The notes beneath the pieces were generated by a model that saw only the letters and a program-made list of their open reading frames with translations, did not search any database and was not told the DNA's origin. Shown here one piece after another: positions 9,482 through 47,047 of a stretch of 64,000 bases of DNA (position 1 is the first letter of the stretch; each line of letters starts with the position of its first letter). The translations under genes were made by a program, and so were the position numbers. Source of the stretch: Blasia pusilla (lineage: Eukaryota); the NCBI GenBank assembly GCA_050084515.1, contig CM114271.1, positions 12,400,001-12,464,000 of the forward strand, in the 5' to 3' direction.

Positions 9482-9504
9482 ATAGATCCTGCTCTGCTTG
9501 AACC

Positions 9505-12701: not shown

Positions 12702-12784
12702 GCCGCCTCACTCAGATCTCCAACTTGTTTCTTCCGTCCCTCCTCGAGCATCTTGGCCTAACCGCTACCTTGAGTTTCCACAAG

Positions 12785-16490: not shown

Positions 16491-16780
16491 GATCGCGATA
16501 GATCACTGTGGTTGCATTGGTGAGCCCCATGCCTACCGAGACAGTGGAGGCAATGGTTGGGGGCGAGACTCGAGGAGATCTCCACACCAGGGGAGATCCG
16601 GAGAGACACCCTTGGACTTCTTGGGATGTTTTGCAGGTACGCAAGGAGATGATAGCCACATCATCGAGCGTGGTTCTAGGCACTACACATGGAGGAGACC
16701 AAAGTTTGCATTTGGCTGCGGGAGAGCGGCCGAGTGTTGTTGTTTGAGACGGAGTTGCACCATAGCAACCACCGATACCC

Positions 16781-18235: not shown

Positions 18236-18436
18236 GATGCGACTGGAGCTCGATGGCATGAAGAGAGTGATGAGGAGTCAGTGCGAGGATGGCACGCGTC
18301 AGCCTATTTAGGCATGTTGGCTATGGAGAGACAAAGTGTGGAGACTTTGATGGCGAGGTCTAGTGGAGAGTCCTTGGATCACAAGGCCATTGAGGAGACC
18401 ACAGGTGGCTGAAATATTCATGATGATGGAGTAGTC

Positions 18437-19848: not shown

Positions 19849-20025
19849 AGGAGATACTAGGTAGGTTTCGATTCCGACTTTTTTTGTGATATGGATGATA
19901 GGAAGGCGACTAACGATGGGGCCACATGAGCACCCGACCTTTCTGCTCTTAGCGTCCTAGAGATGTATGTCGTGGTAGGTAGGGATAGATGGCTAGCTGG
20001 AGTTAGAGGGACCTAACCACCTACT

Positions 20026-20336
20026 AGGGGGGCGATTGGAGATATTTTGGTACTTCTCGCCTCTGTGTATGGATGCCATGAGTTAGCATGGGATTGTGTG
20101 TGTTTGTGTGTGTGTTCGATGACAACGATGTATGTTGTGTTGCGATGTATATGCGCACGATAGGTGTCACGACTGTTAGGATATATTCTAGACCTACTTA
20201 ACACGTCCTCCACTACTCACGAAGGCACTCTGCTAGTTCCCACCGATCTATCCTACCTCGATCTACTGAGCACGTCCTCCACTACTCACGAAGGCGCTCT
20301 GCTAGATCCCACCAATCTATCCTAACAATCGTGACA
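20026..20336 (+). repeat. PPT (20026-20034), block B (20035-20162), GG, start of A (20165-20187), inverted A start (20190-20336)
   Basis: AGGGGGGCG; junction CGATA-GG-TGTCACG; 20190-20336 has two ~65-bp units that are reverse-complementary to 4154-4215 and to 37917-37975. Confidence 0.85.
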
Positions 20337-22975
20337 CGTGGCGTGAGGATATTTTTGGGTATACATAACTAGTGGTCCTATTCAAAACAATTTCTTGTTC
20401 CCAAAAACTTCTCCTCCCGGCCTTTGATATACAAACTCAAAGTGTAAGAATGTGTCTCTCTCTCCCACCCTTACCAAAACACCTTCCCTACCTCTAAAAC
20501 CTAGCTACTTGAATGCCCCCCTTAGCCGTCCCCGCTCCCATGAATACCCCTTAGCCGTCCCGTACCCCCCTGCCATGTGGCCACTAAACAATCTGTGTCG
20601 TTCAGGAAGGCTTCAAAACGCCTGCGTAGTTAGGAGAGGACGGGACCCCGTCCTCTCCTTTAATAATATAGATTGTATCTAAGAAAAGCTATGTGAGGCT
20701 TCGTCAACGTTATCATCTTATGGAACTTTATGGCACAGCAGATCCGATGGGTCGAGGTGGCGTGGCATGAAAGGGAGGTTGGTGTGGGGTCGGGGTTGGC
20801 AGAGATTTACAGCTCATGGCGCTGAACTCTGAATCTTCGAAATCAAGAATTCTACAAAAATCGCCTCTCGATTGATCGTGCTCAAAATATTTGTTAGGGG
20901 TGAAGCCAGAAATCCCGACAATTGCATGCGTAATTAAGCCATGAAATTGGAGTTGAGAGAGGTTGCTGGTAGTTGATGACGGTGGATGCCATCAACCGGC
21001 ATCGACCTCGCCAACGGTAGCTATGGAATTGAGGCACGAAATTTCCTCTCGGAGATAAGACAGGCCGAGGCGATTTCTTGTGGAGGGGCGCTAGTATTGG
21101 TGTCGCTTGCGATGGATAGTTTCTGTCATCAGATCTTTTACTTACTCCCCGTTTGTGCAGATGTCTCGATTCAACTCGATTGTGAGAACCCTCGCTCGCT
21201 CGCTGTGGAGCTTACTTGTGGACGACAAACAGACGCAGAGAGGTATATGCAGCGAAGAAGGGCACCGTCAAACAATTAGGTAACTCTAGACAGGCGGGCG
21301 GCCGAGGTTGGTTCGGCCAGATGAGGTCACGTCTTGTGTCGAGACCGGGGAACACCACGAATCATCCTAGTCTTCATGGACAGCGTTGGGCCCCGGCTCC
21401 CAGATCCTAAAATTTTGTGATTCTTAGGAGGGAAAGCAGAGGGATCAAACTTCCTCCCCAGTTTGATCCCTTTGACGAAAATTTACAAGTTGGTTTAGTT
21501 GTCCTGATTGCATGCAGCCTACGATTACTTTCGCACAGCTTTTCAAACATTGGGTCCTATCTCATCTCCAGGAGTCTAGCTCCGGTAGGCTCGATCTGTA
21601 CTCTGGGGCTAGATCTAGATTTCGGACAGGATAGATTTCGTCCCTTCTGAGCCCTATGACCGATCGAGCTCTGAACTAAATCCCCGAAGAAACGTAGTTG
21701 CTTTGCCAAGGAGGCTAGCTATCTAAGAAACCATAATACCTAGGTCCTTCGACGAGTAGATCTAGATCACCTTGCAAGGGTTACCGTTCAAGCTATTTCG
21801 ACGGATTCAAGTGTGTTTATAAGCAGCTGACTGAACTGCGTTTATCACGACTCCCGGAATTCTGTGCACGCTGAATTCTGCGTTCATTAACCTCTAGCCG
21901 CGCGCGCCTGAGTGTCGTTAACTAGCTCCTTGCAGCGACTACAGATGAGATCGTGCGTACGTAAGTATTCATCATATGCCTCGAATCAGATTTTCATAGT
22001 CAAGTTTCTGAAGATGACGCAGGCTCAAGACCACATAAATCAATCCCTTGCTGCAAACCCAGTTGATTCTCCAGCTGTACTGAAGACTTGAGATAATCGG
22101 AATTGAATTGATTTCTGATTAATAACCATAAAAAAATGAATTTACTTCTGGTAGATACATATCCGAATACGAATTCCCGGTTAAACGCAATCGACGATAC
22201 TCATGTGCCATCCCTGGAGTAGATAGATGTGCCATAGCTTTGCATGACTGAGTTTGCATTATTATCATCAGGTCCCCACCACGCTATCTCAAGCAAGAAA
22301 AGCCCACTTCAACAAAAGAGTGCTGGAAAATGGCGTAATCAGCTTTTATTCTATATATTCCACGGAATGTTTCTTCGCTGTCGAGATTCGAACTTTGTCA
22401 AGGTTATATTTAGTTCTGAAATATCGACAGATGTGCTTGTCGCCGTCGCGTAATACACTAATGTACGCCCACTAAGAACATTGATAGTCGTGTTCACATC
22501 CACAGTTACAGTCAACTGGCTACCAAATTGATTACATTTGGACGAATTGGAGATAGATTCGCACCGTGTAAAATTCCGTTTGAAGATAACTTGAGTCAAG
22601 AGGACTCGAGGAGCGAAAAGGCGTAAAGCTCACTCTAATCTCTACGTGATGTGTTGTTGTTCGTGGCCGGGATAGTGAGCTCCATCCCGATGTATTGACC
22701 GTCCACGTCGCTGCCTGGCCACTGTAACGTCCGCTGACCAAGTACAATGCCCTATTCACAGGGTATATCTCTCAGCTATTCACATAGAGCACGCGTGTTT
22801 CAAGTTTACGAAACGATGCGGGAAACTATTGCTGGAGAATTCCGCCTGTATCCAGTGCGCAACAACTCCAGCTTTAGACGAATTCTTGCTACAGTTTTTG
22901 ACCATTCATGCTCAGTCATAATTTTCCTTACTTTATATGAGTCTATATGGCTCTGAATTTTCGCACACTTATTAA

Positions 22976-27935: not shown

Positions 27936-28644
27936 ACAATGGGGACTTGAAGTCACTATATCACCTCCTCAAGGCCAATGTCTACTTCCACCACTTCAAA
28001 TAGTTTCTTCGTGTACTCTTCTAACTTTATACTATAAGATGCCCTATCAAACCTATGTCACACTTCAAAGTAAAATTAAATATTAATTATGTTCACTCGG
28101 ATTCATTCCGAGAGGAAACATATTATTAGAACCCTTAAACTACTTCATTCTTTGAATATGGAAGAGGTTTTGACATTCAAAAGAAGTTAGCACTATCCTC
28201 TTGACATATAATTGAATAATTTCCCTTCCTTAAATTTTCCTTCACTTTCTCATGTAATTACACTTCCTCTAAAAAAAGAAAGTCTTATTAGCTTCCTCCC
28301 CTCTTGAAACATAGTGAGACAGAAAAGAAGGCAATTTCATGTGGAAAATGGGGGCCGGCTCCTTTCAAACCAATGGATCGTTCCTCCCTTTGAATCCACT
28401 CTTCACCACATACTCACCTCTCCACGGGTTCTTGTCTCTTTTGAATCTTTTGTCCCCACACCAAAGAATTCCTTGAATTCTTTTATGAGTCCTTTTCACA
28501 ATAAGGAGAGGGAACTCTCTTCTCTGATCCACTTTTTGTAGTAGAGAATAACTTCGATAACATCAAAGTCACAATCCTTGCCTTCACGATCATAGCTTTT
28601 CACATCTGATTGAGATTTTCATGCACATATGTACAAATGACATC

Positions 28645-29306
28645 TCAATTTGAACTATAGATCAAGTCTAGAAATAAAAACTCGACCCAACTATGTATCT
28701 TAATAATAAGCATTCGGAACTATAGTTTTCAATGATACCATTGGCCTCTGTTGGGGCTACCTCACAATTGGAAATATAGATCGAGTTCCATAAATTAGAA
28801 TAAAACCCAACTACCTAAAGGATGAACATTCAAAACTCTAGTTCCAAATGATATTGTTGGCATCTCTCAAGACTACCTCATAATCTCAAAAATTCCAGTT
28901 CTAGAGCTCAACTTTCTAAATAATTAGTATTCATAACTCTAGTTTCGAATCACATCGTTGGCCTGTATCTGGAATACATCACAATCAAAACTATAGATCC
29001 CGTTCCAAAAATAAGAATTGAACCCATCTACCTAAACGATCAGCATTCAGAACTGTAAGTCCAAATGATACCGCTAGCCTCCGTAAGGACTAACTCACAA
29101 TTCGAACTAAAGATTAAGTTCAAAAAATGAGAATTTAACCCAACTATCTAAACGATGACTATTTGGACCTCTAGTTCCAAATGATTTCCGTGGCCTCTCT
29201 TTGGACGACCTCGCAAACGAAACTATAGATCTAGTTCTAGAAATGAAGATTGAACCCAACTTTCTAAAAAAATGAGCATTCAAAACTTAATCCAATTCCA
29301 AATCAC
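28645..29306. repeat. ~116-bp satellite, segment 1
   Basis: Units GGAACTATAGAT..GAACCCAACT..GATGAGCATT..GTTGGCCTC; anchors at 29021, 29137, 29253. Confidence 0.85.
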
Positions 29307-30115
29307 TGTCATGCGCATACATATCAATACACAACGTACATCGCTCGTCACATCTACACCACACAACACCGATCTTCCCCACACACGGGTCGATCCACAC
29401 ATGTACAAAAATCAACTCATACATATACATGGAGATCACACAACAAAAATAAAGAGTAGTAAAAACGGCACACCCGGCCTAAAACTCCACTCCTCAATCT
29501 ACATCGGCATATCTAGCCTCGTCCACCATGTGCTATCAAGGAATCCGGACGCTAGCACCCTAGTCCTAGCTCACACACATACAAGGGAGGTGCTCCAACG
29601 GCCCAACATGAGAAAGATGGCTTAGGAAAGCCATCTTCCTCTCTTATATAGGTTGGGAAGAGCCAAAAGGCTCTTCCCCTAAAAATAGCCCTTCCCTTGG
29701 TAACCTGCGTGCACAGGTTACCAGGGGCGGGTGACCTGGTCAACAAGTCATCCGGATGTACAAGACCTCAACATGAAAGTCGTCAGAAACGACGTTCCTG
29801 ACACAATAGACATATCCTCAACCTCATCCGACACTGTGGGACAAAGTTACACTCAAGATAGTCGGCTGGCTCCTACGCCCTATCCACGATAGATCTCGGC
29901 CTATCGGCTACTCAGATATGACAGCTGTCGTGCGCATACATCGCTCGTCACATCTACACCACACAACACCAATCTTCCCCACACACGGGTCGATCCACAC
30001 ATGTACAAAAATCAACTCATACATATACATGGAGATCACACAACCGCCTCCCTAGCTGGCAGTTGGATCCCCCTAACTCCAGATAGAAAATATCACATAT
30101 CTCTGACATGACCTA

Positions 30116-31450
30116 CTACCCTATACACATCTCGGACACATCTGCAGATCCGCACAACATACACCTCAAGCCTGCAGGTACCACTGCCAAGCTCGGATCC
30201 ACCGTCCCATCTACGTTCGGAAGATGACATGGCGCACAATTGCGCACATGATCCTTCCAAACCATACCATCCCGTCCCTCCAACATGAGGACTCCGGTCG
30301 GTAATACCTCGCGCACACATAGGATCGTGCGCCCTGTAGTGACATCTAGCGTCGTGGGTGCCGCCTGCTATAAATACACGTAATCTCCAGGATGAAACCT
30401 CCTAATCCCTGGACGATAACCTCCTCCACGAATGGTCGCGTACCTCAATGTATCTCTATGTTGGGCAATAGCTAAGTTCTCAAAGGCCATAGGCATAACT
30501 CTACGAAAAACTTCTGCCCTCTGAGAACATGCTTGAACCCACACCTCTGGATCATCAAGATCTAACACCTCCGCCATGTCACGTCGAATCGCTGCAGGTA
30601 AATCAGGCTCTCTCCCAAAGAGCAAAAAGTACGGTGAAAATGACGCCAAGGATGCCTGCCGACTAAAGCGATAACTCATAGCCAACCATGGCAATTGTAG
30701 GTCCCACTCCCTCAACTGTCCCCGCTGCAAGCCATACTTGCGCAATCCTCTCTTCACCGTCTGTACCACTCTCTCTGCCAACCCATCCGCCTGAGGATGA
30801 TCCCTGGACGTGGTGCGGTGATCTATCAACACCTGATCACACAAGGCCTGAAACTCTCCCCTGAACTCGGTACCCTGGTCAGTCAACACCTCCGCCGGTG
30901 CACCAAAGTGACTAAGCACACGATCTAGAAACGCATAAGTTCTTCCCTCGCTCGCCTTGTCTGGTAGTGCCACCAACTCTATCCACTTGGAGAAATGCTC
31001 CACCATGACCGACACGTACCTATGATGACGCACTGTCAATGGCAAAGGTCCCGCAAAGTCTAAACTCCACCGATAACCTAAACCCATAATCGACAAAGGA
31101 TGTAAGTGCGGAGTGGGAGCATTGAAGGATGCTCGCACTCTGTCACATACCATACATCTGGCCACAAACTACTGTACCCCAGTATGCATGCCGCGCCACC
31201 AATACTGAACCTGGAGTAAAATTTGTAAATGCACGCTTTACTCCGAAATGTCCCAACTCCTTATGGGCATGTCGCACTACACGTGCTCGCTGGGAAGGAT
31301 GAGGTACCACTCGTATCCTACCATCTCCCCATACCCACAAAATGTGAGTCCCCTCCCACCTGAACCTCTTGGCTCTCTGTAGGATCCGATCCCGCTCCCT
31401 AGCACTCACTGTAATTGCAATGACGTCAGTGCGCAAGAACTCCACAACCT
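30116..31450 (-). pseudogene. Integrase, with a PHD truncated after CMLC
   Basis: HAHKELGHFG, CMVC, WSLDFAGP, LTDQGTEF, ADGLAER; LRCMLCGSA then a deletion. Confidence 0.9.
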
Positions 31451-31619
31451 CCACGTCGTCATGGATATCACGACCACCTGTCGCCTCCTCACTAACCTCC
31501 GGATCCAAAGACTCATCATCCAATCCCACCACTAGAGTCATCACCTGTGGCTGACCTGCCATAGTTAACCAACAAAGATAGGCAGATGCATGCCAACCGG
31601 GCACCATCTCCTCATCACT

Positions 31620-32842
31620 CTCTCCGTGCCATCAAGCTCCCGTGACGTCTCTCTGACTCGGCTCAACCCATCCGCATCCTGGTTCAGCCGACCTGGCCTA
31701 TGAACCACCTCGAACTCATACTCTTGTAGTAATAGAGCCCACCTGGCAAGCTTTCCCGTAAGCTTGTCGGACTCCATCAACCACCTCAACGGCTGATGAT
31801 CAGTGATAAGTGTGAAAGGGTTGCCGAAAAAATAGCACCTTAAATGTGCCACGGCCCACACTGCAGCCAAGCACTCTCCCTCGTAGGAGTTGTACTTCGC
31901 CTCTGCAATGTTGTTCGATCGGCTTGCGTAAGCCACAACGAACTCCCTCTCCTCATCATCCCTCTGAGTAAGCACTGCTCCTAGACCCAACATGCTCTTA
32001 TCCGTATGTAACTGGAATGGGCGACCCCTAAACGGTCTCTGTAAAATGGGTGAGGACGTCAACCTGTCCTTGAGCTCCAGAAATGCTCGCTCTTGATCAT
32101 CTCCCCACAACCACACCTGATCAAGTCTCGTCAACAAGGTCAAAGACTTTGCGATCGCACTAAAACCCTTGACATACCGTCGATAGAAGTTTGCCAGTCC
32201 AAGAAATGCTCGGACTCGACTCACATCTGTATTTGGATTGAAGAGCTCCGCAGGCGCGTTCTTCAATCCAAATGGTAAGAACCGCCACTGATACAAGCAA
32301 TCTCTCCCGAACCGATCTATCCCCCAGAATGATGTCTTCTCTCCTGCCCTCCAACCTGATAGGGAAGCGATGATAGCCAAAGACGGAGATCTAAAGTACT
32401 GAAGATCTTTGCATGCCCTACCGCATCAAAGATATCCTCAGGAGTAGGCATGGCATACCGATCTGACCTCGTCTGTCGGTTGATAGGACGGTAATCTCCA
32501 CACATCCGCCTATCCGTCCAATTGCCAAACATATCCTTCTTCGCCGGCATGACTGTGGCATATGCATACTCCCCACGTGATAACTCCACAAGTCCTGCCT
32601 CCAACAAGTCCTGACTCCTACTTTGAATCAAGGCTCGCTCCATATCAGAATACCTGTAGCTAGGGTCGACGAAAGATTGGCGTATCACTAGCCAACTCAA
32701 TCCGTATCCCGGGACCCTTTAGCGTACCCAAGTCTATCATACTGAAGGCAAAACAACTGACATGCCCTCTCAAAAACCTATGAACTCGCCGTCGCTCTCC
32801 TCCTATCAACTTGAGACCTATCACAGGCTCCCAAGTCTCCAT
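31620..32842 (-). pseudogene. RT (YxDD segment deleted) and RNase H
   Basis: RRMCGDYRPIN, FSTLDLR; LPFGLKNAPAE joined directly to RVRAFLGLANFYRR; FQLHTD. Confidence 0.9.
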
Positions 32843-33129
32843 CGTGACCTCACTCGGAGAGGACGCAACCTCCGGCTTTGGTTGCTATGTAGCAACCCTA
32901 GCCACCTCCGCAACAGCCACTCCACTCTGACCTCCTACACCATGCTCCACATCCAAAAAATGAATATGTCCTACTCTAGCCGCCTTCGCACTCTCTGCTT
33001 GAACAACGTCCCAGGAAGTCCATGGGTGCCTATCTCTCCTCGTCTCGCCCCCAGCCAATGCCTGTACAGACCCTGTAGGCAGTGGTCCAACTCGTGGACG
33101 TGACGGCATGGATGACACTCGCATCCGTC

Positions 33130-34060
33130 TCTGCTCAGCCATACCTAGGCTGACTATCCATGTGAGACAGTTGAGGTCCATCGCCTGCCCCAACACCTGT
33201 CTCCGTGATGCCTCAGTCATCCCTAGCACCGCCGTAGTACCGGAAGTGAACCCCATGGCGCGCTTGCGCTCATCTGCTGTAGGCTCCTCCAATACTCCGG
33301 TCACCTCATCCCAAATCATGCCTAGCCCTCCCTGACGAAAGGCATGGGATGCTGGGAAGCTCACCAACGTAGGTAAGGCTGCCCTCAACTCCCCCACCCT
33401 ATTGGCCGTGGCCAACGGTGGTCTATCATCGCGTGTCACCACCTGAGATTGAGGCCCTGAGTCCAAAATAGCATCCACTGTGAGATGTGGTGCTCTTTGG
33501 ACTCCACTGTAGGCTCGACTCAGTACCTGATGGTATCAGGTTCGTCCACCACAGTCGTGGACGATGGGCACGTGACCCAACTCTCGCTGCATCAAACAAC
33601 ACAGCAGGTCCCAACCAGGACCTCACCTGATGTACACTTGTCATCACACGTGCACGAGTATCTCCCAACAACGACTCTCCTGCAAGTGTTGTACTACTCG
33701 CAGCATCTCCCAAAACATCCCTGACCTCGGATCCTGCAATCCAAATCCTCGGCCAGCTGATGAATGACCCTGACATGGCCATCCAGCAATCACCAAATGA
33801 ATGGTGCCAACTCTATCCACATCCTGCGCCCCCACCAAAGATATGTCGACGGGTAGCGTATGCTGGTATCCCCGTACTGCAGATACCGACAACAACTCAG
33901 GATACCTCTGGACCAATCTCGCCACATGACGTAATGATACTCCCCGCGCGGTCTCATCTCTCTCCACATAAAGGTACTGACGCACCCGCATGCCCGCTTG
34001 CAATACTGCAGCCAATCCGGTGTTAATCCCTCCGAAGAGATCTAACACCCTAACACCCTC
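33130..34060 (-). pseudogene. DNMT3-like C5 methyltransferase domain
   Basis: VRVLDLFGGINTG, YVERD, LVIAGWPCQG (catalytic PC intact), AHRPRLWWTNL, ERKRAMGF, RRQVLGQAMD; the ENV segment is deleted. Confidence 0.9.
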
Positions 34061-34489
34061 CTCTGGGCATTGCCACACAACAAGTGTGGTATCTAGTGGG
34101 GTCATCGTCTCCACTCCAAAAGCCCGATCGCCACGTGACTATCGCTGCTCTCGGATAAAAACATGACTCCACGCCTGCCTCACAAGGTCGTCGGCACTCC
34201 TCTGTAGCTCTCAAGTCGTACCCCATAATGGTGAAGAGACATCGCTAACATGGGAAGAGACACCCGCCATGGCCTGTCTCTCCGTGGGACTATCCGCTAC
34301 TGGGACATCCTCCGCATGTGCGTTCCCCTCCAACAACTCTCCTGGCCAGCTAACACTACCTGTGAAAGCCACCAACGTGGTCACAGACTCGCCTCGTGAT
34401 CGACCACCTCGTCCCGCAAACTGCACGGGTAACTGACTCATCTGACCGTGGCCTAACCGCCATCTTGGCCGATAAGCAACGGTCTCCTC

Positions 34490-35294
34490 CTAGAAGTCAA
34501 GGATGAATCCTAGGGGATATAACACTGTACTCCCAATCAACACATCGTACGACTCAGCTGGTGTCGTAATCACACGTGTGCGCACCATAGCACTATCTGT
34601 CGCATGCTTTGGCTGGACTCTGACAACAATCTCCTGTCGAGTCATATACTGAGTGGGTGATACGCCCCCAATCGAGGTCTGTATTTGGAAGGGACAAGGC
34701 TCAATGTCGGCCTTCTGTAACCCCAATGCTAAACACGCCGCCTTCCCTAATATCAAGGGTTGCGCTCCTGAATCAAGTAGGACGCGCTGCGGGTGGTATA
34801 CTGTCCCCGTCGGACTAACCAAGTGAAATACTCCAGCTCGGTTATCCAGTAACACTACTCCAGGTGTCACCACTGCTCGCTCTATGGCCGGTCGAGCTGG
34901 CATATCTACCAACTTTGTCGCCGCCGCATGCCATGACTTTGTGGGGAACGTCCCAAGCACCGGGTCTGAGGGCAAGTCCACCACCTCCTCAACTAAACTC
35001 TTGGATGAAATCATCTAAGTCGATGGTGCCCACTGCACCCGAGAAATGACGCATGCCCCGATGGCCCATGTCGTCCATCTCCTGCCAAGTACTACTGTCT
35101 CTGTCGGTGATCTCGTCACCAGACCCAGTGTCCACTGATGACGATCCAGTCACGGAGGGATGTCGAGGGAGCTCCTCACTGGTAACCCCTCGGTATCTCA
35201 CTCCACTCCGTGTCACACCACTACCACTACTCACACTACCCCGTTCTTCTGAACCCTGGAAGAACGCCGTGATGACAAACCCTGTCTCACCCAC
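34490..35294 (-). pseudogene. gag N-terminus fused by deletion to the protease
   Basis: DFIQEF (~35000) joined to EEVVDLP; VLLDSGAQ, YDVLIG. Confidence 0.8.
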
Positions 35295-36442
35295 TCAAGC
35301 ACTCAGACTCACCGAGAGTCTCCCACACGCCTCACTAGCTCACCTATGCTAACGTCAATCCCGTGATGACATACCCGGCCTCACGCACGCTCAACACTCG
35401 GGCTCACCATGAGCCTCCCAACTGACTCATCTAACCTAGCAACACTCTCTCGGGTCATACACGCGACCCCTACTTGGCAACCGCCGTATATCCACCAACA
35501 TGCTACACATGAAAAGAATCTACACTTGTCACCATCACTGCACCCATCTAGCACCAGCTACTACCCGATACCCAACACTCTCAATCACACACGACAAGTG
35601 CGGGAAAAGGGACTCGAATGGGTAACCTGATCACGCCCTCCAACCTGCTGCACCGTCAATAATCACTCCTCCACATGATATGACAATCTCTGCAACATAA
35701 CACTCCCCTCGACCAATACGTCGATCCTCCCGTCAACAGATGCGGACAATCCGTCGGCATCATGCACACTGCCCCTCCATCGTAAACTCTCGCAACCCTG
35801 TCGCACCCCAAAACATCATGTCGCGCAGACCCCTCTGTCTATCCCCATGCGCGGCATGTAACGTGACTCACCCTGGTCGGCTCCCACTCATGTCCAGAAA
35901 ATCTCAACTCACGTTCGCCCGACTAACCTCGTCTGTCTTGCCAACCACGTATGCGACAACTGTTCGACCAACTATGGTCGGTGCTACCACGTTGGAGAGG
36001 GGGGGTGAACTTGGGCCCGCGGCCCTTTGCGGGCCCTTGGGCCCTAAATGCCTGGCCCGCACCCCTATGGGCCTCCCCAACGTTTGGGGAGAGAAATTAT
36101 GAGGGGGGAGGGGCGCGCCGTCCGTCGCCCCTCGGCCCTCGCCGCCGCGCCCTAACCCTAGACCGGCCGTTTTACTTGACACAACTGGCGGCTGCAAGCT
36201 CTAACTCTTCTCTCTCTCGACACCCTCACTTGCGTACACCCGACGCCCCACCACACACTACACTCGGCTGCTGTCCCCCATCAATCCGCACCAGCAAAAT
36301 CTGAGAAAAATGGACAGCGCTTCCGCCCACGGCCTTCCGAGCAGAAAAATGACACAAAACGTCACACACACGACTTCAGGGGCTCCCGACCAAGGCAACT
36401 CGCTTGCCTACCTGCAAACAACAAATTCCCACCAGCCCCTGA

Positions 36443-36662
36443 CATCTTTCTCATGTAAAAATAAAGAGTAGTAAAAATGGCACGCCCGGCCTAAAACTCC
36501 ACTCCTCAATCTACATCGGCATATCGAGCCTCGTCCACGCTCTGCTATCAAGGAATCCGGACGCTAGCACCCTAGTCCTAGCTCACACACATACAAGGGA
36601 GGTGCTCCAACGGCCCAACATGAGAAAGATGGCTTAGGAAAGCCATCTTCCTCTCTTATATA
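36443..36662 (-). promoter_or_regulatory. TATA box, predicted TSS and self-priming PBS
   Basis: TATATAA at 36662-36656; 31 nt downstream is CATCTTTCTCATGT (36631-36618), complementary to ACATGAGAAAGATG (36456-36443), which abuts A1. Confidence 0.65.
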
Positions 36663-36935
36663 GGTTGGGAAGAGCCAAAAGGCTCTTCCCCTAAAAATAG
36701 CCCTTCCCTTGATAACCTACGCGCACAGGTTACCAGGGGCGGGTGACCTGGTCAACAAGTCACCCGGCTGTAAAAGACCTCAACATGAAAGTCGTCAGAA
36801 ACGACGTTCCTCACACAATGGACCTATCCTCAACCTCATCCGACATTGTGGGACAAAGTTACACTCAAGATAGTCCGATGGCTCCTATGCCCTATCCACG
36901 ATAGATCTCGGCCAATCGGCTACTCAGATGTGACA

Positions 36936-37916
36936 TCTCGTGGTTGGTCTCAATGGGGGCTGCGTCACAATTGGAACTATAGATTGGGTTCCAAGAATAA
37001 GAACTGACCCCAAGTATCTAAATGATGAGCATTCAGAACTATAATTCTTAATTACATTTCTTGCCTCAATCAAGGTCACCTTTGAATCCGAACTATAGTT
37101 CTAGTTCCAAAAATGAGAATTGACCCATCCGAGAACTTTCAAATTCAAGACTCGGGTTGCAAATGATATTGTTGGCCTTTGTCAAAATTCCCTCACAATC
37201 AAAACTATACATCCAGTTCCACGAATAAAAACTCGATCCGACTACCTTAATGATGAGCATTTGGAACTATAGTTTCCAATGATATCGTTGGCCTCTACTA
37301 GGGCTACCTCAAAATTGGAACTATAGATTGAGCTCTAGAATTTAGAATTGAACCCAACTACCTAAATGATGAGCATTAAGAACTCTAGTTCTGAATGACA
37401 TTGTTGGCTCTTGGGACTACCTAAGAATGGAAACTATAGATCCAGTTCTAGAAATGAGAAATGACCCAAACTTTCTAAACGATGAACATTCAAACCTCTA
37501 CTTTAAAACGACATCACTTGCCTCAACCAAGACTACCGGAACTATAGATTAAGTTTCACAAATGAGAACTGAACCCTACTATCTAAGCAATGAGCATTCG
37601 GATTTCTAGTTCCGAATGATATTGTTGGCCTCTGTTGGGACTGTCTTTCAATCAAAAATATAATTCCACTTCCAAAAATAAGAATTGAATCCAACTTTCT
37701 AAATAATGTGCAATCAAAATTCTACTTTGAATAACATTGTTGGCCTCTTTCTGGACCACATCATAATCAGAACAATAGATATAGTTCTAGAAATGAGAAT
37801 TGAATCAACCTACCTAAACGATGAGCATTGGGAACTCTATTTCTGAGTGACATCCCTACCGTCTATCAAGACTACATCAGAATTGAAACTATATATATTT
37901 ATATCGAATTCCAAAA
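36936..37916. repeat. ~116-bp satellite, segment 2
   Basis: Resumes in phase with the unit interrupted at 29306. Confidence 0.85.
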
Positions 37917-40226
37917 TATCACGTATTTTAGGATAGATCAGCGAGATCTAGCAGAGCGCCTTTGGAGATACTGGAGGACAGCCTCGAGAGGTCAAAGAGG
38001 TTGTCCTCCAGACAGCCTCTTCGACCTCTCGAGCTTACTCTCCAGAGGTAACCTGTGAGAGTAAGCTTCCCCTTTCATTTAGGCTCATTTGGAGCCATAT
38101 TGAGGAACTTACTATTTAGGATAAGTTATCGTTTATGGTATAGTTGACTTTCCACTTTGGGAAGTCTCCCTTCACCCGCTACAGCAAGTCAAGATCCAAA
38201 GAGGTGACTTGCGAGCATAGGTTACTGTGGAGAGGGCTTGGGCAAGGGAAGGGGGTCTACCTCCAAGAGAGAGAGCTTGAGAGCTCATTCTCTCTTTGTT
38301 GAACCTCTTGGCATGAGGCGGCAGCACTATGGCCCTCCTTGCCTTGTGTGTGACCCAAGCCTCTCATTAGGAGAGTGGGTTTGGTTTGACATGAGAGAGA
38401 GTGCACACCATGGAGAGCTTGGTGTGAGATCGTGTTGGTATTAATGAGAGATTCCATTGATTTACAAAGAGAGAATGAGAGAGAGAGGGCTTCAGTGGGG
38501 GAGCTCGTAGATCACTCATTGTTGTTGCAGGTTGGGGACCGTATTCCCCGTTCAGCGGTTCATTTGAGTGCTCACTAGAGCAAGAGCGCTTGTTGGGGTT
38601 GTTTCCTTTTCCAATTTTTCGTGTGGAAGAGTGGCGTGTGGAAGCGCTGCCCAAATTTCTTTAGAGGTTGAGTAATGGGGGCGGGTGGCCTATGCCAATG
38701 CTCTTGAGAGCACCATGAACCTCTCTGATTTCTAATTTTATAGGTTTGAAGTTTTTGTTGGGAGGAATCAACACGGAAGAGCTGCTGAATTTTCGTAGGA
38801 GTGCAGATTAAAGGGCTGCATTATAGTCCCCGTCAGTTATTTTTTGGAATTTCTAACAGAATTTTTTTTGACACTGTCATAGATCCAAAAGCCATGCACC
38901 ATGTGGAACAAAGGATGCACAATTTGGAGCTACGAGCTGAAAGTTATGGCCAATTTTGCAAACTTCCATAACTATTTTTAGGGTAAAAAATCATCTAACC
39001 CTAACCCAGCGGCCGCTGCCAACGGTGCCATCACCTTCCACGCCGTCGTTGCTGCTGCGGCCAGTTGTTTTCGGCACCGCCGTAGTTCAGGACCACATTT
39101 TTTGCCGCCCCCACCGCTATTGCGGCCACTGTTACCAATGGCAGCCACCGCCACTATTTTGGGCCATGTCCAACCGTGAGTGTTGGAGTAGGTTGAATGC
39201 ATACGCATTGCTGCTACTTGTATACTCCCCCCACATCGACAAGGGGACCTTTTGATTCATTGGGTCCTGGATCCTTTGCCATTTTGCTATGTCTTGAAGT
39301 TGGAACCACTCGACGATGATCGAGTTCCGTGCCGTGACGCCCATAGCGGCAACGCGCTGTCGATTGCCGCGTCGTGCCGCTCGTGGCTGCACCGCACCAT
39401 CTCGATCGCGGAGCCCTATCATCATTGTGGAGCAGAGCATGTGTTGTTGTTGTTGAGGAGGGTATGCTACTAAGTGCGGCATCCCATTATCGAGTGTCGT
39501 GTAGGTTGTAGCCATTCCGTGCCGCCTGTGCCGCACCATACCTCTGGACCCGCACTGCATATTGAAGACATTTGAGCATCGTCAGTACTAGGGGAGTTTA
39601 ACGTGCTATTTGGAGGAGTTTTTCTTCATGACTGAGTTGGGGTTAAGATTTGCAGTTGCTAAGGAGCGACACAGACATTTATTTAGGTTACCCATTCTGG
39701 TCTTTTGCCTTGCACGTGTTAGGGATTTCCGGGTATTGGGTAGTTACTTGGGATATTGGATTTTGTGCGAATGTTGAGAGCATCATTGATATATGGGTTT
39801 AGGGGACATAGACCTATGTGGGATGTCCACAGTTGAGGGTATGTCCTATTCATGAGATGATATGACAGCAGCCAATTGCCGCACCATGCCACTTGTTGTC
39901 GCACAACACACATCTCAATGAGAGAGAGTGTAGATTGAGTGTTGCATGTCTAGTTTGAGTGATTGAGTGATTACTCGCAGGATTGAGAGTGATCATGTGA
40001 GAGGGGCACAAGGCTCATCACGGCGTCCTTTCGGGACTTTGAGAGGCAAGGTGGTGGACCGGAGGATAGCTCTAGAAGGTTTACGCCGAGTGGCACGAGG
40101 TTTCGAGGGTCTCTATGTAGGTGGGAAGTTGTGGAGCATCCACGACTTCCAAAGGTGCCCAAGTGAGAGTTTGCACCTGTTGATTAACGTCACTCAGAGG
40201 GTGACAGAGTCCCGGAATATCCAATC

Positions 40227-40891
40227 ATGGTACGCGATGCTGGACTGAACCCTACAGACACGGGTGCGGGAGGGTTGCTTCTTTTGAATACCTCACCTAT
40301 GTTAAGGGATGTTTTTAGGACTGCCAAGAATATTGAGCGCAACATGGTAGAGGAGAGCATAGCCACCATGGGTTCTAAGCAAGAGCAATCACAATTGTCT
40401 ACACCACCAGTGCAACAACTTGGATTCCGAGATAGGTCTGTGGCACCATGAGCTTAGGGAGGATATCGGAAGGCCATGCCACAAATACGTGCGCCTTCAT
40501 ATGTGGCTCAGCAATAGCCGCTTGAGATTATTTGTTGGGCATGTGGTGGAGCCCATCACCAGCGCTATTGCACCCGTCAGGGTCATGGACGCGTACCTCA
40601 TCATGGAGGAGGTGATGGTGCTGCACTAGGAGGTTATTAGTGTGACTATTGTCAAAGGTACGGTCACACACAAGCTAGATTTTTGAGCCTACACCGTCAA
40701 TTACGTCCAGACCGAGGGCCAGAGAGGGCACCAGAGTGAGTTGCCGGTCCAGGTGGGCCTAGAGGTTGTGTACCAGGTGATCCCGTTGGGGGACAAGGAG
40801 CTGGATTTTCTCGAGGGGGTGGTGGAGTTTCCCATGGAGGAGGTAGAGTCCCACCACCTAGATGCGTCGAGGGAGACGCCGCGCGTGAGGC
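40227..40891 (+). pseudogene. gag C-terminal part with two zinc knuckles
   Basis: TAKNIERNM; CWACGGAHHQRYC (~40533); CDYCQRYGHTQAR (~40640). Confidence 0.7.
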
Positions 40892-43800
40892 TGTAATGGC
40901 TGCTCAAATAGAGCAACTTGTAATGTATAACTGAAGGAAAAAGATACTCTTTTTATCGCAAAGTACTAATTGCGTTCCCAAGAGACCACTGTTTCCTGAG
41001 TAAAGAGAGGTTTTATAAAGAATATCAAGAATAAACTCCTTTTTCTTTCTTTCCACTCTTTGATGTAGAAGAAGAGTTTTCTCTCATTCTTTCTGATGCG
41101 CGGAGTTGAGTGTAAAACCTTATTGGGCTCTAGTAGAGATCTTTCGGAATTCTAGAAGATAATCAAGAAGAGCTTAGGAAAGTTGTTAGATAGTGAGTAA
41201 CCTGCCATGACAAATGTAGTTCTAAAAGTAGGGTGAGCCGCCATTCTTGAGATCTCTTTGTGGTCTTCGTGGAGCTTTGTTATTGCAGATTCGCAAGAGT
41301 CTTCGTATGCATTTGAGAAGAGTCTTTTCCATGAGGAAAGAAAAAGCCTTTTATTCTTTTGTACTTGTAATACAATGTCGTTGTAGTTAGTGAAGCATTT
41401 TAGGTAAACTCAAGATACATAGAACAGTATTGAGGAATTCAAGACACAAGGGAATGATACCTTCTTCTACTAATTTGCTCTTTAAATAGTCTTTTACAAT
41501 CCTTGACTGCTCTTCCTATTCTTATCTAGATTTATAACTGCTAATCTTAACCTACTCTATTCAAATTCTCCAACCCTTCATCTTCCTAAGTCGGTTGGTT
41601 GTGCTGACGTTTCATTTCCGCTCCCTTTAAACCACTGCGCCACTCCATTTCCAGCTTCCGAAACCGCCGCGATGATTCAGTCTTCATAGTCTTCCGCTCT
41701 TTGCAGTCTTTATAGTCTGTGTAGTCTTTCTCTTCGCTATCCTATCTTCCCGCGAAGACTCTTTATCCTTTTGCCGCCATGAAGAGTTCTTCTTTCTACT
41801 TTCTTTCACTCCGCTGTCTTCAAAACATTTCCTATCTTTCTATCCTTATTCTTAATACACTTTTCTGCTTTCTAAAGACTCTTTGACTTCTTTTGCTTCT
41901 TCATCTTAGAGTTCTTAGTCTTTGCTCTTGGGTCTAGGCTCTTTCATTCCTTATACCTGGTCTTTGCACAAAGACTATCTTTAGTTTTCTTTACAAAGAA
42001 GCTTTTTCTTAGTCTTTGTTGACAGTCTTGAACTTCCGTTCTTACTACGGTCTTCTTAACTTCTTTTCTAGTCTTTTACACCATTCTCACTCTTCCAAGA
42101 CAATCCTTAATCTTCTAACATCCCTTGTCCTCTCATCATAGGTCTATTAGTCACTCTTCACACAATTTCGATAAAGTAAGACTCTTTACTTCCGGTATTG
42201 AGTCTTTAGTCCTTGCTCAAGGAAGACTCCTATACAAAAAATGCTCTTTCTGTCAAATTTTCAAAAACGTGGGCACTACATACCCCCTCACTCAAATGTG
42301 AGCCATCCCAGCGAACACTCTTTTGGTTCTACTCTATTTCTGTAATGTCTCTACGGACTCCTATCATCTGGTAACTCTACAATTTCTACATCAAGAGGAG
42401 GTCGGCCATGAATGGTCGAAAGTCTGTTGATAAGATTTGGCGTGTTATTCTTCATCCTCTCCCTCCATCCTTCTAAAAATTTTGAAGAACCTAAAACCTC
42501 ATTCTGCACTCTTACCTCCAAAGGTACGAAAGGTGCGATGGGCGGTTCCTGTACACATGGTGGATCAGCCACCTGAGGTAATGGAGCAGTATGTTGCGCA
42601 AACTGTCTATTCCAATGTTGGTCGATATACTCCAGCTCCTCCGTGATGTGGGCTTAAAAGTTCTGGATTGCCTTGTTGATTAAATCCTAGGCCACTTCTG
42701 GTTCTTCGTGTACATCTGCCCTAAGTTTTTGATCGGCCTCCAGCACTACAAGCTTTGCTGTGACTCGGCTCCTCTGAGATACCAAGTCACCCTTTTTCTT
42801 TTGCTGATCCCTATTCAACTTCCCTTTCTTTGCACTCTCCGACATTGCACTTTGGAAACTAGCCTGGAGAAGATCAATCCGCTCCTGTAGTTTCTCTGCG
42901 TTGAGCAAAGATTGCTGCAGTTGCGCAAAGAGCTAATCTACTCCATGCTCAATGTTCATAGCCAAGCTCTCCAATTTTGATTTCTTGCGCCCGATTCTGG
43001 CGCTCCATTGACTCATTGATCGTCTTCTGCATCTAAGTGAGCCGTAGGTTTCAGAGGACGTTTATGTACTCTTGTCATGTGGTGTGATTGGACAAGTTGC
43101 CTATTTGTTTGAGCTCCCCAAGTAGGGGTTATGCGATTTGTAGAAACGAAGTCAAATGTCTTAAGGTTGTGTGCAGAGGTTGCACCACCAAACTTTCTAC
43201 GGAATCGGAAGGGACAACAGATGGTTCCACTGCCTCCGTCGTGGGTGTCTCTATTGCTTCCTCCTTCACTTCTTGATATGGTTCGATTCAAAACCTTTTT
43301 GGTCTTGGTACCTCCGACAATTGTGAGGGTGGCGGGGATGAAGATCCATCTGAGGTGTTTTCACTTGTGGTATTGCCGCTACGTCTCTAGAACCCAAAGT
43401 AGATGCTTTGGTGGGCTTTTGGTCTTCGAATGGGAGTATCCGTGACCCACTCCGAAGACTCGTCAAGGGTAATCTCTCCAACTCGTGAATACAACCAAAT
43501 TAAGAAGGGAGAGAGAAACAATTTCTCCCCTGGTGTTATCAAATCAAGTACATGGGCTTGTACAAGCCCCGTAAAATTAACTCCTTGCTCTTCGGGCTGC
43601 CGATGCATATTCCAAAGAGTGTAACATTGCTTTACAAGCTTATTACTCATATAATAGGTCCTACTTGGATTGAAAAAGACCTAGTATAACCTAGAGAATT
43701 GTGCAAATAGAGTAGGACTCGACATCTGCAGTTTGTAGCCCTTCCTCTCTAATCGCTCTACTACGACGCACCCCAATTCTTCAAGTTCCTCTTGTCAAAC

Positions 43801-46490
43801 AAGAGCAGGTAACTCATACGTGACCCGCCACAAGTCGACGGTCCAATTGTTTGGCTGCGCTCGATACTTGTATCCCTTATTACCAAATTCAATCACCTTG
43901 GAGCTCGAATGTAGCTCCGTGAGTAATGCCACTGAAGATTGCAACCAATCTCCTCCAAAGAACTGCCACAAAGACCTTTCCTCCAAGGCTTCACGCAGTT
44001 CACTCAAAATCCCTAATGTTGGGTACACCCCGCACTTCATGAGCGCCATGTCTTCCTTGCTACTATGGTCTGTCTGCTTCCGACGGTTCTTGCACGATCT
44101 CTACAGGGCCCTCCTTGGTTGACTCTTGACAGTTCCAAGTGCTCTTGTCATGAGAAATGAGCAAACTCATGCCCCCCATCCGACTACACTGCGCTTGATA
44201 ATCGCCAATCTTACGTAATGGCCGCCCCTTCCGTAACGGCTTCTTGGCATTCTTCGCAATCTAGGGCGAAGAAATTGAGGAAAAAGACTATGCTGGAAAA
44301 GAAAAAGACTGCGAAGACAAAGAAGGAAAAGACCCGAGACGAAGACCACCATCCCTTGTCTTTCTTGAGTCTTAGCGAGTCCTTGGAGTCCTTACTTCAC
44401 CCGGTATGAAATGTTTAGCGCTAGGTCCTGTGCCTGCGCTTTCCCTACCCCCTCCCTCAGTCTTCAGGTAGGTGTATAATATCTTGGCACATGCATGCCA
44501 TTTACCCTTGTCGGCAATGCTTCTCCTTTCAACGTTTCCAATTGTAAAGAACCATTTTCAAAAATCTCCAAACTCGGTAAGGCTCCATCCTGTTTAACTT
44601 CAGCTTCCTAGGGAACTTTAGATGACTGTTGTCAAAAAGTAACACCAAGTCCCCTTCACTTATTGATTGCGGTCTCAGGTTCTTGTCATAGCATGTCTTC
44701 CTTTGTGCTTGGATAGTCTTTGTATGTCCAAGGGCAAGATGTCTTGCCTCCTACACCGCAACAAGTCTTCATTCCTTTTTACTATGGTAGCCAACTCATC
44801 TTCGTCCCTCTCTTCTCCGAAAATTTGGTAGGTTGGCACATCCCATTCAATTGGAACAAGGGGTTGTATTTCGTACGTTAGATAGAATGGTTGTACTTGG
44901 TAGTGACGTTCTCCACAGTTTGGTATGCCTAGAGGGCAGCAAGAATCTTGGTATCCTAGTCATATGAATAGGTGACAGTGAGGCGGTTCAAGATCCTGCA
45001 AATAAGCCCATTGGAGTTCTCAGTTAACCCATTAGCTTTGGGGTTGTATGCGGTAGTCTTCTTGTGCTTGAGCAAGAAATGGTCGGTCAAAGCTTTGACC
45101 GTTTGGTTGAGGAAATGAGTTCCCTAGTTGCTCAATAACTCTAGAAGACAACCATATCTAGTAATGATCATTTCATATAAAAATTTAGCCATTGTAGCGA
45201 CTGCTTCAACCATCTTGGTGCAATAACCCGTAGCAATTAAAATATACTTTCGACGGGTCTGTTGAGTGGCAGGTGAGATAGGTCCCACAAAATCAATACC
45301 CCACTTCTGAAAAGGTGCTAAGGGAAGAATAAGTACCAGAGGCCAGCGTGAGGTTGTTGTGGGCCTTCATGCTCTTTGACAAGCATCACACTTTTGTATA
45401 AAGAACCTGACATCCCGATACATTGTGGGCCACTAATAATGTGCGGCCAGGATCTTCTTGACCGTATTCTTAACTGCATAATGCCCTCCTGCATCCTTTG
45501 AGTGCATAGTCGCAACCCTTGGATAGGACCTGCTTCTCTCTGATTGTAGAAATTCTTCATCTATCTCATAGCGCTCTAGATAGAACGCATAGGATGAGGA
45601 CTCTATGTCCATACCCCTCATCTGTGGCAGCCCTGAGACGGCCGAGACTTCCAAGAAAATTTGACCAGCTTCTTGAAAGTACTTGAAGGCGCTTGGAAAG
45701 TAAATATTTTTCTTTTCCAATCTGTATTGACCTAAGCCCCATAAAGCCACGGTCTTCCAATGAGTAAGGGGTAACCTCTGACTATCAAAGGCTAAAGGAC
45801 AAGATAGTCCGGTAGGAATAGCACCCCTCCTATCATAGTGGGTATCTGGGTAAGCTACCCCAAGGGCCGCTTACGAGACTCATCCGCAAAGCGTAAATAC
45901 TTATTCGTGGGTTCATACTTAATGTAACCCAAAGCGTGCGCGGTCTACTCAGTCATGATGTTGATCCCACTTCCAGAATCTATAGGCACCTTCTTGATGG
46001 TTTGCCCTTCAATTTCAACCTCTATTTCCGGCGCACCAAGGTCTTCAACTTCTATATGGAACAGATCCACCATTGGGAGCTTCCTTGCTCTTGCCTTCTT
46101 CTCACGTCCAACCTTCCAACGTTGGAGAATTTTCCCATAAATGGGATTATCCATAAGTAATTGCAGTAAGGATATATTTGTTGGGCTGGCTGCCAAATCC
46201 TTCAGCAAGTCGTAAGCTTCCATCACCAATGGGAAGCCACTGAAGTCTCCACTTTTACTTCTTTGTGCTTGTGTAAGGGTCCTGGGTGAAGACTCCTCTT
46301 GCTTGATCTTCCTGAACTTGGTTACAAACTTGCTCTTCTACTTCCGGATGGAAGTACTCCGGATGATTATGATCAAAATCCGGGTCCTCATCACCTTTTA
46401 GAATAGCTTTCCCCGCTCGGTACGTCTCAACCGCTTTCTTCATAGCCAGAACACCTCGCAAAGATTAAGACTCTCGCAAGATGACTTGTT
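40892..46490 (-). mobile_element. Truncated non-chromovirus Gypsy (Athila/Tat-like layout)
   Basis: Single 3' LTR 40892-42280 (TGTA..TACA); PPT GAGTGAGGGGG; ~2.5-kb 3' region; integrase; protease PIDSGSGINIM (~45960-45990); RT/RH absent. Confidence 0.75.
44850..45560 (-). pseudogene. Integrase remnant
   Basis: MHSKDAGGHY..ILAAHY, FQKWGIDFVGPI, GTHFLN, TAYNPKANGLTE. Confidence 0.9.
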
Positions 46491-47047
46491 GAGGCCACGG
46501 AAACCTGCGAGAGCAGATTTCCCGTTTGTTTCGACTCATTTGGAGCCATTTTGAGGAACTTACTATTTTAGGTAAGTTATCATTTATGGTATGGTTGACT
46601 TTCCACTTTGGAAAGTGGCCCTTGACCTGCTTCAGTAGGTCAAGAGCCAGGTAGGTGAACTGCAAGCATAGGTACCGTGGAGAGGGCTTGGGAGAGGAAA
46701 TGGGATATATCTCTAAGAGAGAGAGCTTGAGAGTTGATTCTCCCTTTGTTGAACCTCTTGGCATGAGGCGGCAGAGTTATGGTCCTCCTTGCCTTGTATG
46801 TGTAACCCAAGCCTCTGATTAGGAGAGTGGATTTGGTTTGACATGAGAGAGAGTGCACATCATGGAGAGCTTGGTGTGAGACCTTGTTGGTGTTGATGAG
46901 AGATTCCACTAATTATTTAATTGGAGATATTTTGGTACTTCTCGTCTTATTTTTTGGATGCCATGAGTTAGCCTGGGATTGTGTGTGTTTGTGTGTATGT
47001 TCGGTGGCAGCGATGTATGTTGTGTAGCGATGTGTATGCACACAACA

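Follow-up and report, generated by a model that had tools for sequence, protein, structure and literature searches.

Retroelements of the DIRS order carry split direct repeats (A1-core-B1A2B2), possess a tyrosine recombinase instead of a DDE integrase, and insert without target-site duplication (TSD). Ty3/Gypsy elements are recognised by the pol order protease (PR) - reverse transcriptase (RT) - RNase H (RH) - integrase (IN), by two complete, identical long terminal repeats (LTRs) whose TG...CA outer ends are the ends of the complementary DNA (cDNA), and by a short TSD made by the DDE integrase. The integrase of human immunodeficiency virus 1 (HIV-1) reportedly cuts the palindromic LTR-LTR junction of 2-LTR circles. 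Cleavage of such a junction is also described for the integrase of prototype foamy virus (PFV; PMC1180852), and self-priming is described for Tf1/sushi, Tcn1 and TAR elements (Neumann et al. 2019, PMC6317226). KnitGypsy-Dnmt3 of Klebsormidium nitens combines the DIRS repeat structure (A-coding-B-A-B) with Gypsy domains (de Mendoza et al. 2018, PMC5890265, Fig. 4c legend). Section 9 and the Fig. 4 legend of that paper give no termini, TSD, primer-binding site (PBS), polypurine tract (PPT) or mechanism for KnitGypsy-Dnmt3. The open-access literature holds no further paper on "KnitGypsy", and no mechanism for a split-repeat Gypsy with an integrase was found in it (Repbase reports and subscription journals lie outside this scope). 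Here we describe an element of the same layout in 64,000 nucleotides of Blasia pusilla DNA (GenBank assembly GCA_050084515.1, contig CM114271.1, positions 12,400,001 to 12,464,000; hereafter the window), located at 29307-36935 on the minus strand and termed the main copy. It is a dead, decayed, liverwort-type member of the streptophyte Ty3/Gypsy clade of KnitGypsy-Dnmt3, a barely characterised kind whose architecture is already in print for a relative. An earlier reading of the window from its letters (the original prediction) knew of no description of this arrangement for Ty3/Gypsy, and is superseded in this respect, the layout having been published for KnitGypsy-Dnmt3 in 2018 (PMC5890265).

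Read in sense, i.e. along the minus strand, the main copy consists of A1, a PBS, a broken coding region for PR, DNA methyltransferase (DNMT), RT, RNase H and IN, a PPT and the series B1-GC-A2-B2. This map was obtained by a repeat search and self-BLAST of the window and by direct inspection of the letters, and every coordinate originally predicted for the copy holds. A1 (36457-36935) is 479 nt long, starts with TGTCA and is 95.6% identical to A2 (29445-29923), the second A copy, which represents the rest of U3, followed by R and U5, of the LTR made by RT. The PPT AGGGAGGCG (30045-30053) lies flush against B1 (29926-30044), the internal B copy, which ends with CGACA and corresponds to the 5' part of U3 of the RT-made LTR. 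B1 and A2 are separated by the spacer GC (29924-29925), and their joint GACAGCTGTC (29929-29920) is a perfect 10-bp palindrome, GACA-GC-TGTC, composed of the right end of B, the 2-nt spacer and the left end of A; it is the putative integrase site. B2 (29307-29444), the 3' terminal B copy, is directly joined to the last base of A2 and ends with TGACA. The first base of B2 is the base right after the PPT in B1, and the last base of A2 is the base at which A1 meets the internal region. B1 and B2 share 99% identity over 108 nt; 19 nt that are present in B2, and also in a sister family of the window, are deleted from B1. The termini of the whole unit are TGTCA...TGACA. Both flanks lie within a 116-bp satellite, with a TSD reading in sense GAGA at the 5' end (36936-36939) and, with one mismatch, GTGA at the 3' end (29303-29306), and the sequences flanking A1 and B2 keep one satellite register with a 4-bp overlap.

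The A-core-B-A-B layout is a clade-wide architecture. Eighty related loci, all metagenome contigs (numbered with the prefix L), were retrieved by a scan with an alignment of 16 relatives, and self-BLAST was done on the 40 that have useful flanks. Eleven of these show an A pair across the core together with a B pair around the downstream A, nine a B pair only (ca. 480 nt apart, left flank missing), two an A pair only (the right end of L017 is cut by the contig end) and 18 neither. A plain full-length LTR pair, which as the prevailing arrangement would have contradicted the original prediction, is present in none of the 40. All 80 loci were furthermore annotated by homology to five reference A and B pieces, and A or B was recognised in 45. 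After removal of duplicates (L015/L016, L043/L044, L067/L068), 23 distinct right ends read B-nn-A-B, two of them with a truncated B2, two further right ends are cut by the contig end after A2, and one (L009) reads B-nn-A followed by unrelated DNA. A single B terminates another 14 loci, of which about 12 are distinct. All 18 distinct left ends start with A, and none of them reads A-B-A. Most copies in this census are of the A..BAB or A..B type, as had been anticipated. L068 (9280-9967) additionally contains a second clade element in opposite orientation, 3.8 kb from the first, which also ends B-A-B. In runs with the organism label of the window, the sequence outside the first base of A is heterogeneous, with an agreement of 0.43 (20 contigs, X1) and 0.41 (16 contigs, X2). 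The joint between the end of A and the PBS was encountered repeatedly, in 17 X1 contigs and 11 reads of RNA run X24, in which coverage of the 3' core is one-stranded and DNA carry-over is possible.

The integrated ends are uniform across the clade. Termini of the relatives read TGTCATG...ACGACA, and all 20 B1|A2 junctions read have a spacer of exactly two bases separating (C/T)A from T(G/A/T). The spacer is GC in six junctions, AC in five and AT in five, while GG, TC, GA and GT occur once each; AC, GT and AT could derive from GC by transitions. TSDs were compared in nine complete long copies, i.e. the window copy and eight loci with both termini fixed. Left out of this set were L019 and L047 (B2 truncated), L043/L044 (left terminus unfixed), and L017 and L048 (contig end). 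Three copies possess exact 4-bp TSDs (CATA, ATAA, ACCT), five show one mismatch and one shows two, both transitions. The mean number of mismatches is 0.78 versus 2.76 in shifted controls, among which 0 of 45 are exact and 6 of 45 have at most one mismatch. The predicted 4-bp TSDs thus enclose the complete A...B unit, and in eight of the nine copies they differ at no more than one base. The TG/CA termini of the integrated form derive, as foreseen, from the B|A junction in the interior, and this junction falls within U3 if the transcription start site (TSS) is placed at A position ~305.

That the LTR made by RT differs from the terminal repeats follows from the priming sites. A TATA box is located inside A1 at 36655-36662, and 31 nt after it lies the predicted 5' end of the transcript, CATCTTTCTCATGT (36618-36631). 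These 14 nt (36631 to 36618) are the perfect reverse complement of ACATGAGAAAGATG (36443-36456), which starts at the first base past A1 and runs from 36456 to 36443; control complementarity in the main copy has a mean of 6.6 nt and a maximum of 9. The PBS of the original prediction keeps its position at the end of A1, but its nature is that of a self-complement rather than of a tRNA site. Among 15 left ends, eight have an 11-16-nt perfect complement starting at most 3 nt from the end of A; its sequence comes in four versions, and its position in five copies is 30-31 nt after a TATA box. The 200 internal windows per element used as controls give means of 5-7 nt and maxima of 8-13. By its sequence and position, the complement at the end of A1 points to Tf1-like self-priming, which places the last base of U5 at that of A. 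At the opposite boundary all 13 aligned loci, and the window as well, show a G-run that directly touches the first base of B1, so that U3 starts where B does. With a PBS beginning right behind A1 and a PPT stopping right before B1, the LTR made by RT is B-nn-A, with outer ends that lack TG/CA. The same composition had been proposed from the main copy, and the relatives agree with it.

The A2|B2 joint was compared in 14 distinct right ends of one subfamily. It is the blunt sum of the end of A and the start of B in eight of the 14, and the remaining six carry indels of -2, -2, -1, +1 and -3 nt, and a loss of 5 nt with a 15-nt filler. The ca. 80 columns around the joint contain only scattered single-base gaps, and the PPT|B1 joint is free of indels. 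The joint therefore looks, from these alignments, as if made anew each time: indels that vary between copies are expected from end-joining or template switching of cDNA termini, not from templated inheritance. In the sixth variant (L026, 6150-6175) the first 5 nt of B are lost and the 15-nt filler partly repeats sequence ~18 nt upstream, a pattern that looks like templated insertion in alternative end-joining.

The core of the main copy is decayed. Pfam scans were run on its stop-to-stop open reading frame (ORF) pieces, 38 in number from both strands. On the minus strand, an aspartic protease region (34430-35002) has a weak match to PF13975 and is recovered by tblastn with residues 80-242 of the relative P0008. 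Next comes, inside pol, a C5 cytosine DNMT region (33125-34099), recovered by tblastn with P0065 residues 286-635 and P0008 residues 235-484 and by a PF00145 match (E=4e-8) that spans 33647-34138. Frameshifted RT remnants (32252-32821) are seen by tblastn, the ORF pieces giving no Pfam match to RVT_1. RNase H (31658-32362) is found by both PF17917 (E=2e-34) and tblastn. The decayed DDE integrase (30146-31508), with H2C2 zinc finger and rve core, is found by PF00665 (E=7e-14) and by tblastn with P0065 residues 1286-1740. The C-terminal PHD finger known from relatives was not recovered in the main copy.

The nearest relatives of the RT/RNase H ORF are liverwort polyproteins of Calypogeia fissa (79%), Riccia sorocarpa (80%) and Marchantia polymorpha (71%). 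Closterium and Klebsormidium nitens rank after the liverworts, the K. nitens proteins matching the RT/RNase H query with 58% identity. Of the 120 listed relatives, many possess PF00145 and a C-terminal PHD finger (PF00628), and the three that span PR/DNMT to PHD (P0065, P0052, P0022) share the order (PR-)DNMT-RT-RNaseH-IN-PHD. On sequence grounds the window element is a member of the same PR-DNMT-RT-RH-IN(-PHD) clade as KnitGypsy-Dnmt3, the kinship to the K. nitens elements being one of similarity ranks. Among solved structures, Ty3 Gag-Pol (7q5b) is the best match (E=2e-94 with P0065). The DD35E triad is conserved across 16 aligned relatives, D1169 and D1229 being invariant and E1264 present in at least 90%. 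In P0065, P0052 and P0022 the DNMT lies between protease and RT, and the PHD finger occupies the integrase C-terminus, where chromoviruses have a chromodomain; among solved structures, this PHD finger resembles readers of the histone H3 tail.

Measured against the described groups, the element is Ty3/Gypsy in its pol order and its similarity to Ty3, seen in the domains of the main copy and in the relatives, and in its short TSD combined with a conserved DD35E. It departs from that group in its repeats, which are split instead of forming two complete identical LTRs with TG...CA outer ends equal to the cDNA ends. With KnitGypsy-Dnmt3 it shares the C5 methyltransferase inside a Gypsy polyprotein, found in the same order in intact relatives, and the layout A-coding-B-A-B. 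It also has the split direct repeats A1-core-B1A2B2 of the DIRS order, but carries an rve domain and is flanked by TSDs. A PBS complementary to the first bases of its own transcript, as in Tf1, is present in silico given the predicted TSS; the chromodomain that Tf1/sushi elements bear at the integrase C-terminus is replaced by PF00628 in the relatives.

Cutting of the internal palindrome by the integrase, combined with end-joining of the cDNA termini, is a rather probable origin of the integrated form. Transcription would start ~30 nt after the TATA box in A1, and the first 11-16 nt of the RNA would fold back on the site starting at the first base after A1 and prime the minus strand, as in Tf1. 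The plus strand would be primed by the G-rich PPT flush against B1, and the resulting linear cDNA would carry B-nn-A LTRs with outer ends devoid of TG/CA. The DDE integrase would then use the near-palindrome ...CA-nn-TG... inside U3; a cut after CA on both strands would leave two 3'-recessed CA ends with a 2-nt 5' overhang, i.e. a normal integrase substrate. Only the palindrome of the left LTR would be cut, and the original cDNA termini (end of A, start of B) would be joined by end-joining, either beforehand in a 2-LTR circle or after insertion of both processed ends, as repair of a chromosomal break. The product would read TG-A-core-B-nn-A|B-CA and be flanked by a 4-bp TSD. In content, the long form as integrated equals exactly a linear B-nn-A...B-nn-A cDNA whose left B has been transferred to the right end.

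Both routes of joining are symmetric for the two LTR palindromes, so that the mirror isomer A-B-nn-A-core-B is expected equally often. It is absent from all 18 distinct left ends, versus 23 long right ends. Given this absence, independent insertions and a mirror form that is no less stable, the left-LTR palindrome must be preferred. The course of reverse transcription suggests that the preference may be one of timing: plus-strand strong-stop DNA would keep the left palindrome double-stranded early, while the right LTR would be single-stranded until the plus strand crosses the core. Alternatively, proximity may decide, B (115-180 nt) being always shorter than A (290-480 nt). Observed are the anatomy, the termini and TSDs, the positions of PBS and PPT, the conserved DD35E, the variable A|B joint, the recurrence across loci and the polarity; we infer the cleavage by the integrase, the agent and timing of the joining, and the cause of the polarity. 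The full proposition, namely that this streptophyte Ty3/Gypsy clade cannot integrate its linear cDNA as made, that the termini must join, and that the DDE integrase opens an inherited palindromic att site in U3 with the left LTR preferred, is one that we hold with as much doubt as confidence.

Several observations weigh against the proposed replication cycle. Five of the 15 left ends (L007, L019, L039, L066, L017) show no complementarity at the end of A or none above that of the controls, and two more reach only 8 nt, at the right place. Read mapping gave no pile-up of read starts or ends; depth along B1 is low and depends on copy divergence, so that the poly(A) site and TSS are unreadable. 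The A|B indels sit in AT-rich, slippage-prone sequence. L009 (14275-14830) ends with B-nn-A, lacks B2 and continues directly into unrelated DNA, which may be the end expected of an unpermuted linear cDNA or the result of a deletion. All ten complete metagenome copies scanned have broken ORFs, as does the window copy; the loci with long ORFs are short contigs or belong to more distant Gypsy lineages, and that the architecture is active is read from intact relatives whose flanks were not visible. The polarity itself, with no mirror isomer, is not predicted by a plain circle model. Among the single-B copies, four have both ends, two of these with exact TSDs (TACA, TTTT); they may be direct A-core-B insertions or B1xB2 deletions and do not discriminate. 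As predicted dead ends, single-B copies could arise when both palindromes are used, from a 1-LTR circle, or equally by B1xB2 deletion. The short A-core-B copies were considered as proof of direct use of both LTR palindromes and rejected as such, since a B1xB2 deletion gives the same product with the same TSD.

Among other explanations, a ligated 2-LTR circle in which the integrase opens either of the two identical palindromes accounts for the long form with its TG/CA termini and TSD as well as for the variability of the A|B joint, and has precedents in PFV and HIV-1. Under this model, mirror isomer and long form should be roughly equally frequent, in conflict with 0 of 18 left ends versus 23 long right ends, and the model would need rapid, near-complete AxA deletion of the mirror isomer without the same for BxB deletion of the long form. 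We regard it as unlikely. For the original prediction this means that integrase cutting at CA-nn-TG gains comparative support, while the symmetric 2-LTR circle it invoked is insufficient, for want of the mirror isomer.

The A|B joint could also be made by RT, an end-to-end template switch from A to B giving a concatemer or an extended right end from which the integrase excises the unit between palindromes. Microhomology at the joint (-2 at AT), 1-nt changes and the templated-looking 15-nt filler are yielded by template switching as well, and one-sided extension could give the observed polarity. As the extension needs second-strand synthesis and end-joining gives the same junction spectrum, such an origin of the joint seems quite improbable to us.

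Far less probable is a misassignment of PBS and PPT, by which the true LTR would be A+B (TG...CA), B1 would lie in the 3' untranslated region and the 5' B would be lost in the copies found. A2+B2 does look like a normal TG...CA LTR, with ends resembling those of an ordinary Gypsy nested in the window, but B follows A in none of the 18 left ends, A2 lacks a purine run in front of it, and B2 borders directly on the flank and its TSD, without any PBS-like sequence behind it. The complement of the TATA-proximal site exactly at the end of A1, in four sequence variants, and the G-run exactly at the start of B1 speak against it too.

Integration in the manner of DIRS, in which host recombination or a trans-acting tyrosine recombinase would insert a circular cDNA and the integrase would play no part, would fit the repeat layout, which is that of Ngaro/PAT (A1-[ORFs]-B1A2B2; PMC8547959). 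The tyrosine recombinase domain PF00589 is absent from the 38 ORF pieces of the main copy, from five relatives scanned, three of them spanning PR/DNMT to PHD, and likewise from the Pfam annotation precomputed for the 120 listed relatives. The DDE integrase accordingly remains the sole recombinase visible, as first noted, and since 4-bp TSDs together with TG...CA ends mark the work of a DDE integrase, and DD35E is conserved, we consider this explanation very remote.

A one-off event, i.e. a solo LTR or second insertion beside an ordinary element, a local rearrangement or an assembly artefact, might be suspected because the main copy is old and lies in satellite, and other copies in the window are rearranged, but it is practically negligible: recurrence of the layout in dozens of unrelated loci excludes chance, its recurrence with own flanks and TSDs in independent assemblies and in contigs of other runs excludes rearrangement, second insertion and assembly error, the last two of which the original prediction had named as its possible undoing, and the A1 and B2 flanks of the main copy continue one satellite register with a 4-bp overlap. 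Two further routes were rejected. Homologous recombination of a 1-LTR circle into a pre-existing solo A-B needs such a target at every locus, and a rolling-circle plus strand yields A-PBS, never A|B.

The window contains further copies. Of the main family, a second copy (1-2858, minus strand) is preserved in its 5' part, with A at 2378-2858, PBS at 2364-2377 and internal sequence running off the window. Its A (2858 to 2378) is ~93% identical, has the same TGTCA start against a different, unrelated flank, continues into the same internal sequence as in the main copy, and keeps both PBS and self-primer sequences. The sister family is ~73% identical to the main family in pol and is represented by two rearranged copies, both on the plus strand. 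The first (4157-20340) consists of a 5'-clipped A, PBS, core, a PPT ending at 20034, B1 (20035-20162), the spacer GG and a truncated A2 starting TGTCAC. An inverted B (4148 to 4025) adjoins its 5' end, where A lacks its first ~17 nt; this aberrant junction (4025-4217) may be an autointegration or a palindromic rearrangement. The truncated A2 (20165-20340) forms a ~170-bp inverted repeat (TGTCACGACTGTTAGGATA ... TATCCTAACAATCGTGACA), and internal inverted repeats of the sister family also occur in the first ~130 nt of A (37971-38033). The second copy of this family (37917-47047) possesses A1 (37917-38467), PBS, core, a foreign integrase fragment, a 5'-clipped A2 (46499-46919) and B2 (46920-47047), having lost B1 and the first ~130 nt of A2; its flanks are without TSD. 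The fragment, at 45016-45657 on the minus strand, stems from the integrase of another Gypsy and probably explains the missing B1 and A2 start. This copy had been cited in the original prediction, under the name family I, as a parallel to the main copy. Its A2-B2 right end is real, with B2 from 46920 beginning ATTGGAG, but with B1 and the A2 start lost and no TSD it is not a clean example. The PPT before 20035, which had been matched to it, exists but belongs to the separate copy at 4157-20162 on the plus strand, truncated after B1-GG-TGTCAC.

Nested in the core of the first sister-family copy is an ordinary Gypsy (6482-13786, minus strand) with a ~1-kb LTR pair of 92% identity, TGTCGTG...CGCGACA ends resembling those of the split-repeat clade, and a 5-bp TSD (G/A)TTTA. 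Its normal LTR pair serves as a positive control: the method does detect ordinary LTRs. Arrays of the 116-bp satellite occupy 28636-29306, 36936-37916 and 47048-47923, and at least two clade elements (29307-36935 and 37917-47047) lie inside satellite, head to head and ~1 kb apart. The PHD finger may have directed them there, or they may simply have accumulated in heterochromatin. A tandem repeat of ~207 bp at 54680-55671, with units 81-84% identical, is unrelated to the element.

Compared with canonical Ty3/Gypsy elements, such as the nested one at 6482-13786, the clade has the same pol order and sequence, the TGTC.TG...CGACA motif and a TSD of 4-5 bp, but the canonical elements have two complete identical LTRs whose ends are the cDNA ends. 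The rule, found in LTR software and textbooks, that an element with a DDE integrase has two identical LTRs whose tips are the integrase substrates is broken by this clade in liverworts, zygnematophytes and Klebsormidium. Because split repeats violate the two-LTR assumption, standard pipelines will mis-annotate the clade as solo LTRs, truncated elements or DIRS. Tf1/sushi and Tcn1 likewise have a PBS complementary to the 5' end of their own RNA instead of a tRNA (PMC6317226); compared by features, they differ as chromoviruses with ordinary LTRs, whereas the present clade has a PHD finger instead of the chromodomain and split repeats. KnitGypsy-Dnmt3 shares the Gypsy pol with a C5 DNA methyltransferase inside the polyprotein and the DIRS-like repeats (PMC5890265), while the window copy is decayed and closest to liverwort sequences (79-80% identity). 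The combination of DNA methyltransferase and PHD finger in the same elements has a bearing on the interplay of transposons and chromatin.

With Ngaro and PAT of the DIRS order the clade shares the repeat topology A1-[ORFs]-B1A2B2 (PMC8547959), and both imply joined cDNA ends. Those elements have a tyrosine recombinase and no integrase, whereas the clade described here has a DDE integrase, TG...CA ends and 4-bp TSDs, and lacks PF00589 in the sequences scanned. If the proposed mechanism is true, a DDE integrase can serve a split-repeat architecture that is regarded as typical of tyrosine-recombinase retroelements, and the clade would be a natural system for the link between Gypsy and the Ngaro/PAT architectures and a possible model for the origin of DIRS/Ngaro-type elements from Gypsy-like ancestors. 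It would equally be a natural system for the study of an integrase that cuts an internal palindrome and of the dependence of retrotransposition on host end-joining. In the cleavage of retroviral 2-LTR circles, too, a CA...TG palindrome is cut by the integrase to give two 3'-processed ends at once. There the palindrome arises from the ligation of true LTR ends, and the route is accessory or disputed. In the present clade U3 already contains the palindrome, inherited with its 2-nt spacer; the cut would not fall at the ligated A|B joint, and the route would be obligatory, so that the circle junction, or cutting and rejoining, which is accessory at most in retroviruses, would here be the normal life cycle.

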